Shown here: positions 22,060 to 54,415 of the stretch, piece by piece | Numbering within the stretch: the stretch's first letter is position 1 | Layout of the letters: each line of letters starts with the position of its first letter | DNA from: Hypanus sabinus | Lineage: Eukaryota | Direction: 5' to 3' | DNA: 64,000 nucleotides | Assembly (NCBI RefSeq): GCF_030144855.1 | Contig: NC_082708.1 | Span: 133,300,001 to 133,364,000, forward strand | The notes under the pieces: model-generated | Databases searched by the model: none | What the model was told of the DNA's origin: nothing | What the model saw: only the letters and a program-made list of their open reading frames with translations | Program-made: the position numbers and the translations under genes

Positions 22060-24150
22060 CAACGCGAGTGAATCTGCAGATGCTGGAAATAAATAAAAAC
22101 ACAAAATGCTGGCAGAACTCAGCAGGCCAGACAGCATCTATGGGAGAAGGTAGTGACGGCATTTTGGGCCGAAACCCTTCATCAGGAGTGAAGTAACATA
22201 GGATGATCGAAGAAGTGGGGGGAGGGATGAAGTAGAGAGCTGCGAAGTGATAGGCTGAAGGGAAATGGGCTGGGGGAAGGTGGAGAATTAAGGGAAATAA
22301 AAGAGAAAGAAAGGTAGGGCTGGGGGGAGATTATGGGGGGGGAAGGAGAGAGAAAAAGAATTGCTGGAGGACAGAGCGCCGGTGTTCGGCGAAACAGTCT
22401 CCCAGTCTGTGGCGGGTCTTGCCAATGTATAAATGGCCACATCGGGAGCATCGGATACAGTATATCACCCCAGTTGACTCGCAGGTGAAGTGGTGCCTCA
22501 CCTGAAAGGACTGTCTGGGGCCTAGGATGGTGGTGAGGGAAGAAGTGCGGGGGCAGGTGTAGCACTTCTTCCGTCTGCAGGGATGAGAGCCCGGAGGGAG
22601 GTTGGTGGGGAGGGATGGGGGGGATGAATGGACAAGGGAGTCATGTAGGGAACGATCCCTGCGGAAAGCTGAGAGGGGGGAGGAGGGAAAGATGTGTTTG
22701 GTGGTGGGATCCCGTAGGAGGTGGCGGAAGTTACGGAGGATTATACGTTGGATCTGTAGGCTGGTAGGGTGATAGGTGAGGACCAGGGGGACTCTATCCC
22801 TGGTGGGCTGGTGGGGGGATGGGGTAAGGGCAGAGGTGCGTGAAATACGGGAGACACGATGGAGGGCAGAGTTGATAGTGGACAAAGGGAAGCCCCTTTC
22901 TTTAAAAAAGGAAGACATCTCCTTTGTCCTAGAATGAAAGGCCTCATCCTGAGAGCAGATGCGGTGGAGGTGGAGGAATTGAGAGGAAGGGGTAGCATTT
23001 TTGCAGGAGACAGGGTGGGAGGAGGAATAGTCTAGGTAGCTGTGAGAGTCTGTAGGTTTGTAGTAGACGTCGGTGGATAGGCAGTCTCCAGAGATAGAAA
23101 CAGAGAGATCTAGAAAGGGGAGGGAGGTGTCAGAAATAGACCAGGTGAATTTGAGGGCAGGGTGAAAGTTGGAGGCGAAGTTAATGAAGTCGACGAGCTC
23201 AGCATGTGTGCAGGAAGCAGCACCGATGCAGTCGTTGATATAATGCAAGAAAAGAGGAGGACAGATACCGGTGTAGGCTTGGAACATAGATTGCTCCACG
23301 TGGCCGACAAAACGGCAGGCATAGCTAGGACCCATGTAGGTGCCCATGGCTACACCTTTAGTTTGGAGGAAGTGGGAGGAGCCAAAGAAGAAATTGTTAA
23401 GGGTGAGGACTAATTCCGCGAGGCAGAGAAGAGTGGTGGTAGAGGGTGACTGGCTGGGTCTGGAATCCAGGAAGAAACGGAGAGCTTGGAGACCCTGGTG
23501 GGAGATAGAGGTGTATAGGGACTGGACGTCCATGGTGAAAATGAGGCGGTGGGGGCCAGGGAACTTGAAATCTTTGAAGAGATGTAAAGCATGGGAAGTA
23601 TCACGGACATAGGTGGGAAGGGATTGAACAAGGGGAGATAAAACAGAGTCGAGATAGGCAGAAATGAGTTCAGTGAGGCAGGAGCAAGCAGAGACAATGG
23701 GTCTGCCTGAACAGACAGGTTTGTGAATCTTGGGTAGGAGGTAGAAACGGAAGTGCGGGGTGTGTGAACTATACGTTTGGTGGCCGTGGATGGGAGATCT
23801 CCTGAGCTGATGAAATCGGAAATGGTTTGGGAGACAATGGACTGGTGCTCCCTAGTGGGGTAATGTTCCAGGGGTAGATAAGGGGAGGTGTCAGTGAGTT
23901 GTCGTCTTGCCTCCGCTATGTACAGGTCAGTGCGCCAGACGACAACAGCACCCCCCCCCCCCCCCCCTTATCAGTGGGTTTGATGATAAGGTTGGGATTG
24001 TTGCAGAGAGAATGGAGAGCAGAGCGTTCAGAGGGGTTAGAATTCGAGCAAGGGGTGATGAAGTCGAGATGGTTAATGTCCCGATGGCAATTAGAGATAA
24101 ACGGATCCAGGGCGGGTAGTTCTGGGCGGGGAGTCCATGAGGAGGAGGAG
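22060..24150 (-). mobile_element. Penelope-like retroelement (RT plus GIY-YIG endonuclease), 5'-truncated and inactive
   Basis: ORF 22331-23533: MDVQSLYTSI, QTKGVAMGTYMGPSYA, YIND (YIDD mutated), GVIYCIRCSRCGHLYIGKT (GIY-YIG); pyrimidine-rich 3'UTR and terminal hammerhead-like motif 22150-22190. Confidence 0.92.
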
Positions 24151-26626: not shown

Positions 26627-27075
26627 TGTCAAACGTTCCTTCTAATTATTACCCGTTACCCGATGCAAGAACAGACAGTACTACAGAAGGTAAAGCAACT
26701 GCTTTTTTTATTAGTAGCTTGCTACTGGAGAGAGCTCTCTCTAGGCCCACAGCAGCCCGTTCCGAGGGTCTCCCTACCCGCACACAGATACAGAGTCTTT
26801 TTTATACCCTTTCTGCCATGCAGCAGGAAACAATTTTCTGGCTACCCCTACAGTCATATGCCCAGCAACAATGGTATTTTAATACAAAGGCCCTTTGGTT
26901 GCCTTAATAGGCCAAAGGTCATCAACCACAGACAATGTGCATGATGAGATCATCTCTCGTAGTTCTTTTGTACGGTATTACCATATTGCATTCTGCAGGT
27001 GCACAAGCCAGCAGAGCTTAGCTTGAAATCTAATTTTTACCTGTCAGCAGAACAAATTAACCCTTTACTACCTCA
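26627..27075 (-). repeat. ERV 3' LTR (449 bp)
   Basis: Direct repeat of 32104-32559 (about 19 substitutions and 2 indels by eye); minus-strand TATAAA near 26806 and AATAAA near 26712; preceded by PPT AAAAAGGAGGGAA (27076-27088). Confidence 0.95.
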
Positions 27076-27103
27076 TTCCCTCCTTTTTATCATATGATAA
27101 CAA

Positions 27104-28470
27104 TTAAATTGGGGCTGAAAACAGTGCCGCTAATTTGGTAGGGAAAGCCTTGCAGCACGTGTTTAAACAGGTCAACAGTACACAACACACAATGATAATC
27201 ACAACAAGAATGACTAACCCATGTAGGAAATAAGAGGCCCATGATCCCCCTAGCAACTAGCTGAGCCACCCTTCTCCTCCCGGCAGACCCTTGCCTAAAA
27301 CTATCTAACTGAATCTGAATTTTCTGAATCTCTAGAATCGCGTACGAGATGTTATGGGACTCGTCCCTGACATGGGTGTTGCACTTATCTCCAACTATGG
27401 CACACACCCCTCCCTGCTGGGCTAACTGGTAGTCCACAACATACCGGGTCTGCAGAGCGTAAAGTCGAAGTTCTGCCATTTCTTGGTTGATTGCCTCCAT
27501 TGTGCTGTTCCCCAATGCTGTCAGCCCACAGACGAGGTAGTTTCGATTCCCAGCTATGGCCCCTGCAGATCCGCCGAGGGAGAAAGTGCTGAGCCAGCCT
27601 TAGCCCACCGCCGATCCCAGAGTGGTCAGGTCCTTATAATCCGCACATAATTCCTTACTGATGGATCAAGCCACCAGTCGTCGTCAAACGGGAGCTTCCT
27701 GCAGGCCAGGAACGGTGATCGTTCCAACGGCGAATGGTGGAGGCAGAGCATTAGGACCCGTAGTGTAAGAGGAACACGTATCCGCTCTTTGCCCAGTAGC
27801 ATGTGGAACTGTCAGAAAATGTTTTCTGATACCAGATATTTTCAGCACGGTATATTGGGGCGAAAGCCAGCTGACATTTTCCCTCTAGAAACGTGGGTCC
27901 CATTACAATGACCACACACGTACTGATTCCCTTCGGGTAGGACAACACACCTTTCTCGAGTACAGGTACATGAAAACTTACTGCTTTTTATTCCACAATC
28001 ATGATTCAGACAGTGCCTTTCAATGCTGGGGATGTTCTTAGGGACTTTAACAATTACACACACCCATCCTATTCCTCGGAAATAGAAAGGGCAGCCGTGG
28101 GTGCCCCTACAGATAGTTCCATTTCCAGACTGTCATTCTGTTGCCTCTGTGCGTTTAGCCAGGACTGAGTTCCCCAGCTCTTGGATCACCCATTCTCAGA
28201 ACTCCACCCTAAAGTGCTGTTCAAACTTTCCACACACTGTCCCATACTCGCTCTTGTAAACCTTCCCTTATCACCTTTACGCTCTCTGCCTGACGTATCC
28301 TCTTCCACTAACTCCTCCCAATTCCTTTCAGTTGGGTTAGCCACGAATAGTGCCTCTACAAGGGGTAACATACAGTTCTGTTACCATATAATTGCATATG
28401 CATTTCATAAAAGAGATTACTTTCCAAAGCATCTGTAAATACATAAAGAGTCCAAGTCCAACAACAATCG
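27104..28470 (-). pseudogene. env: ERV env (SU plus TM) with stops and frameshifts
   Basis: SNLFYEMHMQLYGNRTVCYP N-terminus; TM LC...LVCGLTALGNST...LQTRYVVDYQLAQQGGVCAIVGDKC; anchor LHGLVILVVIIIVCCVLLTC after a frameshift. Confidence 0.9.
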
Positions 28471-28471
28471 C

Positions 28472-28551
28472 TAGTCCTGACGAAGGGTCTCGGCCCGAAA
28501 CCACGGATGCTGCCCGACTTGCTGAGTTCCTCCAACGTGTTTGTACGTGTT
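28472..28551 (+). mobile_element. Penelope-derived 80-bp insert inside the ERV at the pol/env boundary
   Basis: AGTC-CTGACGA-A-GGGTCTCGGCCC-GAAA; TSD AACAATC(G/A)C at 28463-71 and 28552-60. Confidence 0.8.
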
Positions 28552-28556
28552 AACAA

Positions 28557-30162
28557 TCACGTTTCGTCCGGCGACCCTCGCTTATAATCACTCAGGTGAA
28601 TCCAACGGTTGTGACCTTGTACTTTTACTGCAGTCGGCATCTGGAGAAGGATCTGAAAAGGTCCTTTCCACCGGGGTCCAAGCTTGGGGTGCTCCCAATC
28701 CCTTACCAGTACCGAATCCCCAACTTTCAAATCCGGACACTCCGCTTCTGGTTTTTCCTGTGGTTTAAATGCCTCCTGCACCTGAGAATGAAGGAACTTT
28801 AGAGAGGATGTTAACTGCCTGAAATACCTTTGCAATTCACCCCCCCCCCCCATAACATTAAGGTCAACTTGGGTGGGAGGCTGTGTATTGACATCCCACG
28901 GGGTCCTTCCGGGACGTCCATAAATAATTTCAGCCGCTGATACTGTGGTAGTGGAATGGGGAGGAATCATCATATGATACAAAGCTAACAGAAGGACCTT
29001 CAGCCAGTTCAGTCCAGTTTCAGACATTAACTTAGCCAGCTTATTTTTCAAGGTGCCGTTAGCCCATTCCACTATTCCTGCAGCCTTCGGGTGCTGGACA
29101 CAGTGGAATCGCTGTTGAATGTGCAGCACCTCGCATAGTTCTTTATTTATTTTTCCCACAACATGAGGACAATTGTGCGAACTTGTCTGTCTGGGTAAGC
29201 CGAATCTTGGTATAATCTCTGTAAGTAACACCCTTACCACCATGGAGGCTTTATTATTGGTGGTCAGAAAGGCTTCAGTCCATCTGCTAAGCACATCTAC
29301 AATCACTAAACAATACCTATAACAGTGTACACGCGGTAGTTCGATAAAATCAAGCTGAATAAATTCAAAAGGACCCCTTGGCAAGGGGATTTTTCCTCGG
29401 GCACACTTTATTCCTCTTCCCGCATTTATTTGTTGGCATATCAGACATGATCGTATTTTCTCTTGTGCCGCCTCTTCCAATCTAGGGTGCCACCAGGTGC
29501 GTAGTAAAATGTTACTCATTCCCTCCTTGCCAAGATGCGTATCAGTATGCAGGCAATCAATAAGCATTGGTAACAAAGCATCAGGTATACAAACTTGGCC
29601 AACTGGTGTGAGCCAGAGGCTCTCGGACGCAGAGTGCAAACACCCATGTGACTTCCAGATTAGTTTTTCTGAATCGGGGCGTCCCCCTGTAGTTGTCCAT
29701 GTCTGGAAAACCCTTTGCTGTTGTGGTTGGCCAGCAGGCCAAGGCCAATTTCTCTGCCGTGGAGACAATATAAATGGCAGTCTGTGCCGCTAATTTGGCT
29801 TCTCTGTCCGCCCGATGATTACCTTGGGTAACGAGAGGAGTCGGAGAGATGCGCTGAGCACTTAATTGTTTTGAAAGGAGGATGGCACTGAGGAGGTTCT
29901 TTATGTATGAGGCATTCTGGATAGGGGTCCCTGTGGAAGCGAGGAATCCTCGATGGGCCTATAGCTGGCCGAAGTCATGAGCCAGCCCAAAAGCGTAACG
30001 GGAGTCAGTAAAAATATTGGCCACTTCATCCTTGGTCAATATACAGGCTCTTGTCAAGGCAAATAGTTCTGCCCTTTGTGCTGAGACAGGAGGTGGTAAG
30101 GATGCTGACTCGACCACAGCCGAGTCATTCACAATGGCGTAGCTACTAAGGCGGGTTCCAGT
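28557..30162 (-). pseudogene. pol: ERV pol remnant: RNase H plus integrase
   Basis: SAQRAELFALTRAC, NIFTDSRYAFG (RNase H); H-x3-H...C-x2-C, QLDF, SSHNCPH (second catalytic D changed to H), GIVE, WKGPF (integrase ORF 28557-29768). Confidence 0.93.
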
Positions 30163-31601
30163 AAAAAAAAGAGTGCTCGCTTCATCTGGGGTCACCAGTT
30201 ATCCGACTAGTTCATATTGTTGGTCCTAATGGCAGCATCAATATTCTCAGGGATACATTGCACAAGAATAGCATTAAACTGGGGCGAGAGATTACCAGCA
30301 TTAAAGGCGGTATCCCCGGCATAGGTTGCATAGGTGGAGCAGAAACGGTCCTAAAAGTCAGTACCGTCTTTTCTTTCCTTAGGTTTACATTCTAAGACTT
30401 TGCTCATGTCAACAAGCTGATGCAGGGTCGTCTTAAGGGCTCGTTTAATCTTGTCTACCTGTTCTGTTGGGTCTGGGTTCACTGTCAAAAATGCCTGCCA
30501 ATTATTGTGATTATTTAGTCCCTGATACCATTTAGTCTGTTCATCCTGAGTGAGGGCCGTACAGCACAGACTGAAAAGATCTTGGAGAGTAGCCTGATAC
30601 ACTTGAATGATGCTTATTATATAGCGTATAAAATCGTCCAGATTCGTTTTATGGTTAGGTGCGGTGCTCATCATCATGCGCATTTCATGAGCTTTCCATG
30701 GGGTATAAATGCGCAGAGTGGGTTCATCGGCGTTCCCGTGGGGATCGGGGCAATTCCGGTCAGGAGTAAACGTGGAGTGTGTGCATCCGGGGCCACAGTT
30801 TCAAAGGGGTCATTTTCATCACACTCCTCATCAGGGTCAATCAAAGGGCAGTCCCCCTATTAAACTGTTTCTCTTGAGAATTGCATTTTTGCGTTTCGGC
30901 CGCGGGGTAGATTTTTTTCAGTGGCTTCAGTTCCAGCTGCAACGGGATCACTAAATTGTTCTGGCCCATGTCTCCGCTCCCGTTCCTGAGCTGTGTAAGG
31001 AGGTGATGGTTGGGATGCCTGCTTGCTGAAGGAGTGGAGGGTAAACTGGGGCCGTGGGGCGAACTAGTCAATCCTCCTCAGTTTCATCTGTATCATCAGT
31101 CTCATTTTGGAACAACATCGGTAAACCAGACTTGTCCGGAGGTACCTCCATTTTACCCTGGTAATTAACAACCTCACGTCCCCGTCCAGTTCCTTCTCCT
31201 GTTTTTTCCCTCCTTTTCTGTCCTTTATCATGCTCCTCGCTGTTACTTCAACACTTCCCATGGCTTGGGTTTGCCTTCCCTATCACATACACTAATCCCT
31301 CTTCTAGATGCATTGTGTTCCCAACTACTTTGTCTAGACTTATTGGTTAATTCCTCGGCCGTTTTTCTCCATGTTGACATTAAGATTTTCCATTTCCCCC
31401 CTGAATTCCGCTTCCACATTGTCTTTTCTGCATTAATGAATTTCTGCACATTTCAGGTTCCCCCTAATGGCCACGTTCCATTTCCAGTTTCTTATTTAAT
31501 GAGTCAGATAATTTACAAAAATCATTTCCGTCCCTGGGAGTCTCCTTACAAATTTTGAACAAGGGGGTATCCGTTCCTGACTTATCAAGGGTCTGACCCA
31601 T
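30163..31601 (-). pseudogene. gag: ERV gag remnant (MA, Pro-rich region, CA); NC absent
   Basis: ATG at 31601 gives MGQTLDK (myristoylation-type MG start); WPLGGT MA motif; MHR-like KVLECKPKERKDGTDF*DRF; several frameshifts. Confidence 0.85.
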
Positions 31602-32082
31602 TTTCCTTTAATCCGTTAATTTTGTGCTGTGCCTCTCTGCACCCACTTCAGGGTACTGACCTTCACATGGGGGATTTTCCCTCTTAACAACCGGTCTAAG
31701 GCAGGGTGTCTGAGACAGGCAGATTATTGTAAACTCACTGTAGTGAATCCTCTAACTATTATCCCAGTGAATCCTCTAACTGTTATCTGGGACGAATCCT
31801 CAATCCCACACTTCTTGTACCTGGGCGAATCCTCAACCCCACTTTTTTAACACCTGGGCGAATCCTCAAGCCCCCCTCCAACCCCTTCTTACCGTAGTAC
31901 TCGGGCAACCTTAATGATTCTTCAGGAGTCTGTCCAAGGAATGCCCGTAGACGAAGGGGTCGACAAGGTACACAACTAATGAGAGAGATCAAGGTAAATC
32001 TTACCTTGTGGACCCATCTGTCTCGGGTCGTTGCCACCGAGCCGATCACTGATGCCGCCTCACGGAGCTGCCTCGTCTTGGA

Positions 32083-32100
32083 CTCCTGGTTGGCTCATCA
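32083..32100 (-). promoter_or_regulatory. ERV primer-binding site, tRNA-Arg(ACG)
   Basis: Minus strand TGATGAGCCAACCAGGAG, 15/18 to TGGCGAGCCAGCCAGGAG, 3 nt downstream of the 5' LTR. Confidence 0.8.
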
Positions 32101-32103
32101 AAT

Positions 32104-32559
32104 TGTCAAACGTTCCTTCTAATTATTACCCGTTACCGGATGCAAGAACACTCAGTACTACGGAAGATAAAGCAACTGCTTTTTTTATTAGAAGCTTGCT
32201 ACTGGAGAGAGCTCTCTCTAGGCCCACAGCAGCCCGTTCCGAGGGTCTCCCTACCCGCACACAGATACAGAGACTTTTTTTATACCCTTTCTGCCACGTA
32301 GCAGGAAACAATTTTCTGGCTACCCCCACAGTCATATGCCCAGCAACAGTGGTATTTTAAGACAAAGACCCTTTGGTTGCCTTAATAGGCCAAAGGTCAT
32401 CAACCACAGACAATATGCATGATGAGTTCATCTCTCGTAGCTCCACATTTTTTGTACGGTATTACCGTATTGCGTTCTGCAGGTGCACAAGCCAGCAGAG
32501 CTTAGCTTGAAATCTAATTTTTACCTGTCAGCAGAACAAATTAACCCTTTACTATCTCA
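32104..32559 (-). repeat. ERV 5' LTR (456 bp)
   Basis: Direct repeat of 26627-27075, TG...CA ends. Confidence 0.95.
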
Positions 32560-34155
32560 CTATGGTTTCCACATCGTTCCTATAGTGAGGCGACCAGAAC
32601 TGAGCACAGTACTCCAAGTGGGGTCTGACCAGGGTCCTATATAGCTGGAACATTACGTCTCGGCTCCTGCACTCAGTCCCACAATTGATGAAGGCTAATG
32701 CACCGTATGCTTTCTTAACCACAGAGTCAAACTGCACAGCAGCTTTGAGAGTCCTACGGACTCAGACACCAAGGTCCCTCTGCTCCTCCACACTGCCAAG
32801 AATCTTACCATTAGTACTCTATTCTGCCATCATATTTGACCTACCAAAATGAACCACCTCACACTTATCTGTGTTGAACTCCATTTGCCACTTCTCAGCC
32901 CAGTTTTGCATCCTAACAATGTCCTGCTGTAACCTCTGACAGCCCTCCACACTATCCACAACACTCCAACCTTTGTGTCATCAGCAAGTTTACTAACCCA
33001 TCCCTCCACTTCTTTTATCCACGTCACTTATGAAAATCATGAAGAGTAGGGGGTCCCAGAACAGATCCCTGAGGCACACCATTGGTCACTGGCCTCCATG
33101 CAGAATATGACCCATCTACAATCACTCTTTGCCTTCTGTGGGCAAGCCAATTCTGGATCCACAAAGCAAGGTCCCCTTGGATCCCATGCCTCCTTACTTT
33201 CTCAATAAGCCTTGTATGGGGTACCTTATCAAATGCCTTGCTGAAATCCATATACACTACATCTACGGCTCTACTTTCATCAATGTGTTTCGTCATATCC
33301 TCAAGAAATTAAATCAGGCTCATAAGGCATGACCTGTCTTTCACAAAGACTATTCCTAATCATATTATGCCTCTCCAAATGTTCATAAATCCTGCCTCTC
33401 AGGATCTTCTCCATCAACTTGCCAACCACTGAGGTAAGACGCACTGGTCTTGGGCTATCTCTACTTCCTTTCTTGAATAATGAAACAACATCCACAACAC
33501 TTCAATCTTCTGGAACCTCTCCCATCCTCATTGATGATGCAAAGATCTTTGCCAAAGGCTCAGCAATCACAGTAGGCTGGGGTACATCCTGTCCGGTCCT
33601 GGTGACCTATTCAATTTAATGCTTTCCAAAAGCTCCAGCACATCCTCTTCCGTAATATCTACATGCTCAAGCTTTACAGTCCACAGTAAATCATCCCTAC
33701 AATGGCCAAAATCCTTTTCCATAGAGAACACTGAAGCAAAGTGCAGATTGAGTGCATCCCTTCTCTATCACCTGCCTATCCTCCCTCTTGCACTGTCTCC
33801 AAGCTTTCTTTATTTGTGAGCCAACCGCCTCTTCCTCCATCTTTTCGGTTCACTTCCCACCCCCCAGCAATCCTAGTTTAAACTCTCCCCAATAGCCTTA
33901 GCAAACCTCCCCGCCAGGATATTGGTCCCCTTTGAATTCAAGTGCAACCTGTCCTTTTTGTAAAGGTCACTCCTGCCCCAAAAGAAGTCCCATTGATTCA
34001 GAAATCTGAATCCCTGCCCCCCGCTCCAATCCCTCAGCCAAGCATTTATCCTCCACTTCATTCTATTCCTATACTGACTGTTGCGTGGCACAGGCAGTAA
34101 TCCCGAGATTACTACTTTTATGGTCCTGCTTCTCAACTTCCTTCCTAACTCCCTG
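32560..34155 (-). mobile_element. CR1 LINE (RT fragments and SGNH-esterase-like ORF1), internally deleted
   Basis: VVYMDFSKAFDKVPH, GVPQGSVLGP, ADDTK, LVRPHLEYCAQFW; ORF1 VVISGLLPVPR...DRLHLNSKG. Confidence 0.88.
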
Positions 34156-54157: not shown

Positions 54158-54415
54158 CTTTATTTTTTCTCCGTCTATCTCCACCGTCTTCTCTCGGAAA
54201 TCCACCCCGATGGTGGCTTCAGTCTTATCGGGGAACTTGCCAGCGCAGAAGCGGTAGGTCAGACAAGTTTTGCCTACGCCTGAGTCGCCGATGACGATGA
54301 TCTTGTAGATCCTGGAACGGGGCGGCGCGGTGAACATCAGCGAGCCTGCTGGGGGAGCGCCGTGCGCCGGCGAGTCTATGGCCGACGCCCCCTCCTTTCC
54401 TCCCCTAATGGACAT
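54158..54415 (-). CDS. RAB33B: RAB33B exon 1
   Basis: [54 protein letters not shown]|gtaacg; phase 0, total protein 234 aa. Confidence 0.95.

Follow-up and report, generated by a model that had tools for sequence, protein, structure and literature searches.

The stretch of Hypanus sabinus DNA considered here (the window: 64,000 nucleotides of contig NC_082708.1, assembly GCF_030144855.1) carries on its minus strand a 5.93-kb provirus, running from long terminal repeat (LTR) to LTR, whose envelope gene (env) occupies positions 27104..28470. [quoted passage not shown] In ASLV and filovirus GP, the loop Cys pair closes the internal fusion loop and a third Cys binds the N-terminal Cys of the SU (as described in PMC3758190, PMC9967133 and Hotzel 2023). 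In the lineage studied here, cleavage would occur about seven residues before the first loop Cys, after which the loop would pack on the trimer, its Gly-rich hydrophobic middle would insert into the target membrane, and the heptad repeats (HR1 and HR2) would collapse into a six-helix bundle. Two weaker steps may be added to this scheme: the N-terminal Cys of the SU would pair with the Cys of a VPCP motif, leaving the SU held on the TM by its terminal strands alone, and one subfamily (family A) would be matured by the protease SKI-1/S1P, its sister subfamily (family B) by furin. Set against an intact natural relative, the env of the window copy itself falls into six aligned pieces, hence five frame changes, to which stops are added, and the copy is therefore dead: judged by its sequence, it is a broken fossil that makes no functional envelope protein itself.

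The transmembrane subunit and its conservation

Read in the minus-strand frame, with X for stops, the TM region gives X-RRLVA-X-SISKEL-C-ADYKDLTTLGSAVG-X-GWLSTFSLGGSAGAIAGNRNYLV-C-GLTALG-NST-MEAINQEMAELRLYALQTRYVVDYQLAQQGGV-C-AIVGDK-C-N, which reproduces, outside the stops, the residues and positions that the initial annotation had read from the letters alone. The loop Cys codons (27647-45 and 27530-28) enclose the 38-residue, Gly-rich loop that it had described, with seven Gly and no Pro; seven residues beyond the second of them comes a glycan site, and the Cys codons of the CX6C motif (27404-02 and 27383-81) are followed by AAC (Asn, 27380-78) at the third position. Stops interrupt the TM and cleavage region at 27686, 27668 and 27602. 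The open frame 27090-27599 departs from the true frame near 27290, so that open reading frame 27090-27515, upstream of which the initial annotation had read, has its tail out of frame and the membrane anchor lies in another one. Compared with intact relatives, the loop is one residue shorter (38 against 39) and HR1 three residues shorter, and the losses private to this copy comprise one loop codon, three HR1 codons and the VPCP Cys, which is the C-terminal SU Cys of the family.

The conservation of these features was evaluated with searches of the same genome (40 scored DNA matches and 150 scored protein matches), from which 60 loci were fetched, leaving 40 distinct other places after removal of overlaps, several of them near-duplicates, and with a protein library clustered at 50% identity, in which the loop was counted among matches with enough upstream sequence. 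The first loop Cys is kept in 37 of 38 readable copies, the second in 33 of 39 and both in 31 of 38, and the glycan Asn of HR1 is kept in 37/38. The third-Cys position holds Ile in 34 and Val in four of 38 readable copies, and Cys in none, while the family proteins all show CX6C followed by I, V, M or T. In the library, a Cys pair at the spacing seen in the window occurs in 17 of the 21 proteins lacking the third Cys and in only three of the 77 with CX6CC, all three of them filovirus GPs, which argues that the pair is not a product of chance. Sister family B of this genome combines R-Y-K-R with a Cys seven residues further on and also carries the loop, the glycan and CX6C-I, and named relatives are found in sawshark, horn shark, whale shark, manta and epaulette shark. 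On the sequences compared, then, the observation is real, family-wide and was correctly read. With both flanking Cys conserved and CX6CC seen in none of the copies, the missing third Cys noted in the initial annotation stands, although the Asn that it reported there is private to this copy. The glycan, which had been taken as a mark of the Ebola/ASLV type, is present but not diagnostic, as 61 of 74 ordinary CX6CC Envs without the loop also carry it.

The reading in which a decayed gamma-type Env acquired a Cys pair by chance and lost its third Cys privately would draw on the fact that the window copy does carry private losses; it is ruled out, with a practically negligible residual chance, by the conservation across copies and species, and family C, which has an ordinary CX6CC in the same genome, has no loop.

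Some further variation was observed among these envelopes. Family B env frames are largely open (520 codons in L061/L089 and 555 in L062/L090), and no whole env frame was found among the family-A copies examined. In family C, the HR1 region is tandemly repeated with the frame still open in L063, L065, L067, L075, L076 and L099, the unit being about 31 residues and present many times over in L063. One family member of 646 amino acids (P0015) has an extra N-terminal Cys-containing domain, about 150 residues, ahead of the SU core.

The surface subunit, its cysteines and its maturation

The predicted model of the SU of a relative folds like residues 33-190 of filovirus GP1 according to Foldseek, and would thus present the GP1 base-and-head fold. 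The SU stops about 15 residues or less from the equivalent of GP1 position 189, with no glycan cap or mucin region. It has no CWLC-type CXXC (CWxC in none of the ten VPCP proteins), a lone N-terminal Cys (VCYP), kept in 25 of 29 readable copies, and a C-terminal Cys (VPCP) found in 10 of the 14 long proteins without the third Cys and in none of the 58 that have it. Since the N-terminal Cys is conserved, the VPCP Cys tracks the loss of the third Cys, and both SU ends map onto the GP1 ends, we lean slightly towards a bond between these two residues inside the SU. The TM ectodomain, for its part, contains exactly four Cys, matching the two known pairs, which argues that the SU is not bonded to it; family-A SU is thus likely to be without a covalent link to the TM.

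Several observations weigh against this picture of the spike. The similarity to GP2 begins only at the second stem of the loop, the middle of which remains unaligned and lacks the central Pro; the Foldseek E-values of the SU are 0.002 or weaker; and the predicted Rous sarcoma virus Env ties with GP1 in TM-score normalized by the query (0.31), the PDB results being without an ASLV SU. Moreover, a GP1-like fold is described as common to retroviral SUs generally (Hotzel 2021, in the part available), and the full-length model is poor, with a mean predicted confidence (pLDDT) of 55.5, below 50 over the loop, and a predicted TM-score (pTM) of 0.32. The VPCP correlation comes from a single clade together with Tapajos virus, and the number of Cys in family-A SU is odd (17 or 15) in six of nine, so a free Cys could bond elsewhere. 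This last point favours an alternative in which SU and TM would still be covalently joined through another Cys pair, involving, for example, the VPCP Cys or a spare Cys of the mid-SU C-G-x-C motif. Each Cys of the family-A CxxC is kept in 30 of 31 readable copies, and an unpaired SU Cys of avian leukosis virus is needed for infection (as stated in Hotzel 2023), but P0010, P0015 and family B lack the motif, and the four Cys of the TM ectodomain are accounted for by the two known pairs, which makes a surviving covalent link improbable.

As to maturation, the R-L-V-A motif of the window fits the SKI-1/S1P rule R-X-aliphatic-Z (this and the convertase rules are those given in the consulted part of PMC8310232). 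The initial annotation had remarked that the cleavage region is not of the furin type, and this extends beyond the window, as neither R-X-K/R-R nor the looser RxxR occurs in any of 13 family-A-type proteins, whereas sister family B has a furin site. The pattern basic-X-aliphatic-small fits all 13, 11 of them with Arg, so that cleavage of family A by SKI-1/S1P at R-X-V-(T/A), and of family B by furin, may be proposed tentatively, at just short of even odds. An even chance is given to the alternative, namely that family A is cut by an ordinary convertase recognizing basic residues at P1 and P6: the looser (K/R)-Xn-(K/R) rule also fits 10 of the 13 relatives, the site occupies the same register as family B's furin site, and PMC8310232, in the text available, names PC5A, PACE4 or furin as the enzymes that cut P1/P6 sites and lists retroviral Envs among furin substrates. 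It also speaks against SKI-1/S1P that, of 32 decayed copies, only 17 show a readable Arg at the basic position. On the other side, P0010, an intact frame of 468 amino acids, fits the S1P rule only, and the aliphatic P2 and the small P1 are retained in 27/28 and 33/33 readable copies, respectively.

Relatives, pol context and published counterparts

Searches with the window TM give filovirus GP2 at an E-value of 1.5e-9 and retroviral TMs at 0.002 or weaker, and the family profile matches filovirus GP (1e-21), CAS virus (4e-11), syncytin-2 (1e-10) and ASLV (0.005). In a tree of 96 TM-core columns and 139 rows, the shark clade (94/83) joins the mammalian filoviruses at 89/78 (unstarred), with Tapajos virus, a filovirus of snakes, outside; in a smaller subsample of 48 rows, this support falls to 64/42. 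The family is thus distinct from ordinary gamma-type Envs, and its position as sister group to the mammalian filoviruses is weakly supported. Could its nearest relatives instead be Tapajos virus GP and the Envs of squamate endogenous retroviruses (ERVs) that lack the third Cys, this residue having been lost once? Tapajos GP (P0126) has CX7C-L, the loop pair and a Cys in VECP; HHalign scores it at 99.5% over 194 columns including the SU end, against 98.3% over 115 for the dianlovirus-type GP; and a clade uniting every third-Cys-less protein is not rejected by an approximately unbiased (AU) test, in which its tree scores slightly better (2.9 log units, p 0.695). This grouping is nonetheless on the doubtful side, for the 139-row tree pairs the shark sequences with the mammalian filoviruses, the same placement is reported for cartilaginous-fish ERV ectodomains of 5.8-6.35-kb elements (posterior 0.83; Nino Barreat and Katzourakis 2024, PMC11521997, in the part available), and the Tapajos and Ahaetulla rows are both long branches. 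The latter, P0135 from Ahaetulla prasina, is an ERV-type Env of a snake that reads CX7C-A, has a Cys 45 residues upstream of it and is one more form without the third Cys.

The reverse transcriptase (RT) of sister copy L096 matches those of murine leukaemia virus (MLV; E 7.5e-45), foamy virus (4.7e-27) and HERV-K (2e-11). The window lacks an RT, but its shared pol is 74.6% identical to that of L096 over 1628 nt, and its pol is therefore assigned to class I; the integrase alone is ambiguous in the PDB search, where foamy integrase ranks first. From these sequences, env likely belongs to a class I ERV lineage of cartilaginous fish. The pairing of a class I pol with a filovirus/ASLV-type envelope, put forward in the initial annotation, is thus upheld, although the TM resembles GP2 far more than the TM of ASLV; as for its suggested bearing on the shared ancestry of these fusogens, the sister relation is weakly supported and the filovirus link has very likely been published. 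Between protease and RT, the family-A pol has an insert (L096:5166-5480, minus strand, G000:C40) whose two H-x-T motifs suggest a 2H phosphoesterase, with only a weak Pfam match (Acb1, E 0.07) and an empty PDB search; similar inserts occur in fish ERVs. The family C env at L099:4054-6632 (plus strand) adjoins a pol with RT, RNase H and rve matches, which we take, from its motifs, to be class III-like. Pairings in the style of class III-like pol with gamma-type env are reported in the available text of Chen et al. (bioRxiv 10.1101/2021.11.23.469661).

The kinship of shark ERVs to filovirus ectodomains has likely been reported already in PMC11521997, judging from its available text. Its Fig. 6 clade (Amblyraja, Leucoraja, Scyliorhinus and Chiloscyllium ectodomains) was compared by size, hosts, best matches and tree position, and shares with the present family the host group, the retroviral context, the sister position to mammalian filovirus GP2 and the best viral matches (Ebola, Marburg, dianlovirus, Tapajos and CAS virus); as its elements also bracket the 5.93 kb found here, we take it from these descriptions that the lineage is probably the same. 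Its main text mentions neither cysteines, fusion loop, cleavage nor SU. A Cys-flanked fusion peptide was unknown outside birds according to Henzy and Johnson (2013, as available), and later descriptions extend alpha-like Envs to lizards, mammals and bats. These proteins (ASLV, Mab-Env3/4, mammalian alpha-like and bat CHIRalphaEnv, as far as their available descriptions go) resemble the family in the Cys-flanked internal peptide, the lone N-terminal SU Cys, the lack of a CWLC-type CXXC, an immunosuppressive domain (ISD) and an HR1 glycan. What sets the family apart from them is the missing third Cys (0/38 copies), an additional Cys at the C-terminal end of the SU, the absence of a furin site from family A (0/13) and a class I, not class II, pol.

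With filovirus GP1,2, the family shares a second loop Cys that precedes CX6C by exactly 45 residues, the N-x-N-x-L-(I/V)-C stem and the glycan position, but it differs in the loop length (39 against 44 residues), the missing central Pro, CX6C instead of CX6CC and an SU that ends right after the core. Furthermore, its env lies in a retroviral context, between integrase and 3' LTR, with polypurine tract, primer-binding site and target duplication, and not in that of a negative-strand RNA virus or its endogenous element. Tapajos GP is alike in lacking the third Cys, in the loop pair, in the V-x-C-P Cys at the SU end and in its similar length, and differs in its CX7C, its RxxR site and an SU middle that does not align. 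Reptarenavirus GP2 has a filovirus-like TM (PMC3419519; family profile E 4e-11) and keeps the third Cys, as C-X7-CC (PMC6722660, as available). Beta-type Envs, which are marked by CXnC, the lack of an ISD and a long membrane-proximal region, share CX6C, but the ISD-like stretch and the gamma-type and GP2 matches place the family elsewhere. In ERVs of fish and amphibians, Chen et al. describe subtypes with CXnC, three fusion peptides that are new and the combination of gamma-type env with an epsilon-related pol, cartilaginous fish included; a Cys-clamped loop is not described for the CXnC class in their available text, and the family may be among those classes. In the literature search, no paper joining these features was found, the S1P cleavage point not having been searched directly.

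Proviral anatomy, locus and wider meaning

The features of the provirus are collected in Table 1. Its LTRs differ by 19 substitutions in 444 columns (Kimura two-parameter distance 0.044). The primer-binding site may resemble the 3' end of a tRNA-Arg, and ARAGORN found no tRNA gene at its genome matches (8 of 20 matches examined). The gag region gives no Pfam match, the integrase matches MLVIN_C (E 2.1e-14) and rve (E 2.4e-10), and protease and RT have been deleted near 30150, between the gag remnant and RNase H. This loss seems common to several copies (L082 and L087 besides the window), whose joined gag and RNase H suggest a non-autonomous subfamily. Elsewhere in the window, a host gene resembling Rab33B has its first coding exon at 54158-54415 (on the same minus strand as the provirus), within an island that is rich in GC and has a tandem repeat upstream, and a Penelope-like element with RT and GIY-YIG matches lies at 22331-23851 (minus strand).

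Table 1. Positions of the proviral features within the window
Feature	Positions	Strand	Remarks
5' LTR (TG...CA)	32104..32559	-	4-base target-site duplication ATAG at 32560-32563
Primer-binding site	32081..32100	-	3' of the 5' LTR
gag region, decayed	30154..31720	-	blastn against copies L087, L088, L096
RNase H remnant and integrase with MLV-type C-terminal domain	28557..30154	-	open frame 28557-29789
About 80 bases at the pol-env junction	28470..28551	-	gap in blastn matches to L082, L087, L096; unmatched in other copies
env SU	27690..28430	-	stops and four frame changes; tblastn with P0002
R-L-V-A motif	27669..27680	-	two stops in the flanking region
Cys-flanked internal fusion loop	27528..27647	-	one internal stop, 27602-27600
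HR1 with N-glycan site and ISD-like stretch	27405..27527	-	Asn 27509-07
CX6C motif and third position	27378..27404	-	Asn here, Ile/Val in other copies
HR2, frame change at about 27290, Trp-rich membrane-proximal region, anchor, short tail	27107..27377	-	part after about 27290 in another frame
Polypurine tract	27076..27088	-	adjoins the 3' LTR
3' LTR	26627..27075	-	ATAG duplicate at 26626-26623

What is added here to the printed record is the likely non-covalent attachment of SU to TM, the GP1-like fold predicted for the SU and a possible site for S1P, the evolutionary headline itself having probably been published. A bolder reading, rather unlikely at present, is that the retroviruses of sharks and rays hold the closest known relative of the filovirus spike as a whole protein (SU and TM): a third kind of gamma-lineage Env, with an internal loop, no SU-TM disulphide since the SU is closed on itself by an N- to C-terminal bond, as would be the case in Tapajos virus, and one subfamily matured by S1P, as in arenaviruses, and not by furin. 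If this were true, filoviruses would have captured a whole env gene, and not the TM ectodomain alone. In any case, the model of the SU suggests that the surface subunit too, beyond the fusion core, looks GP1-like in the fish lineage, which would add structural detail to the published idea of a retroviral origin. The family also breaks the working rule by which an ISD is invariably accompanied by CX6CC and a covalent bond of SU to TM (as formulated in the available part of PMC9967133), and would thereby offer a natural system to address what that bond is for. Finally, one genome houses two sister subfamilies with different cleavage motifs, a putative switch from furin to S1P that is amenable to a short-peptide test.
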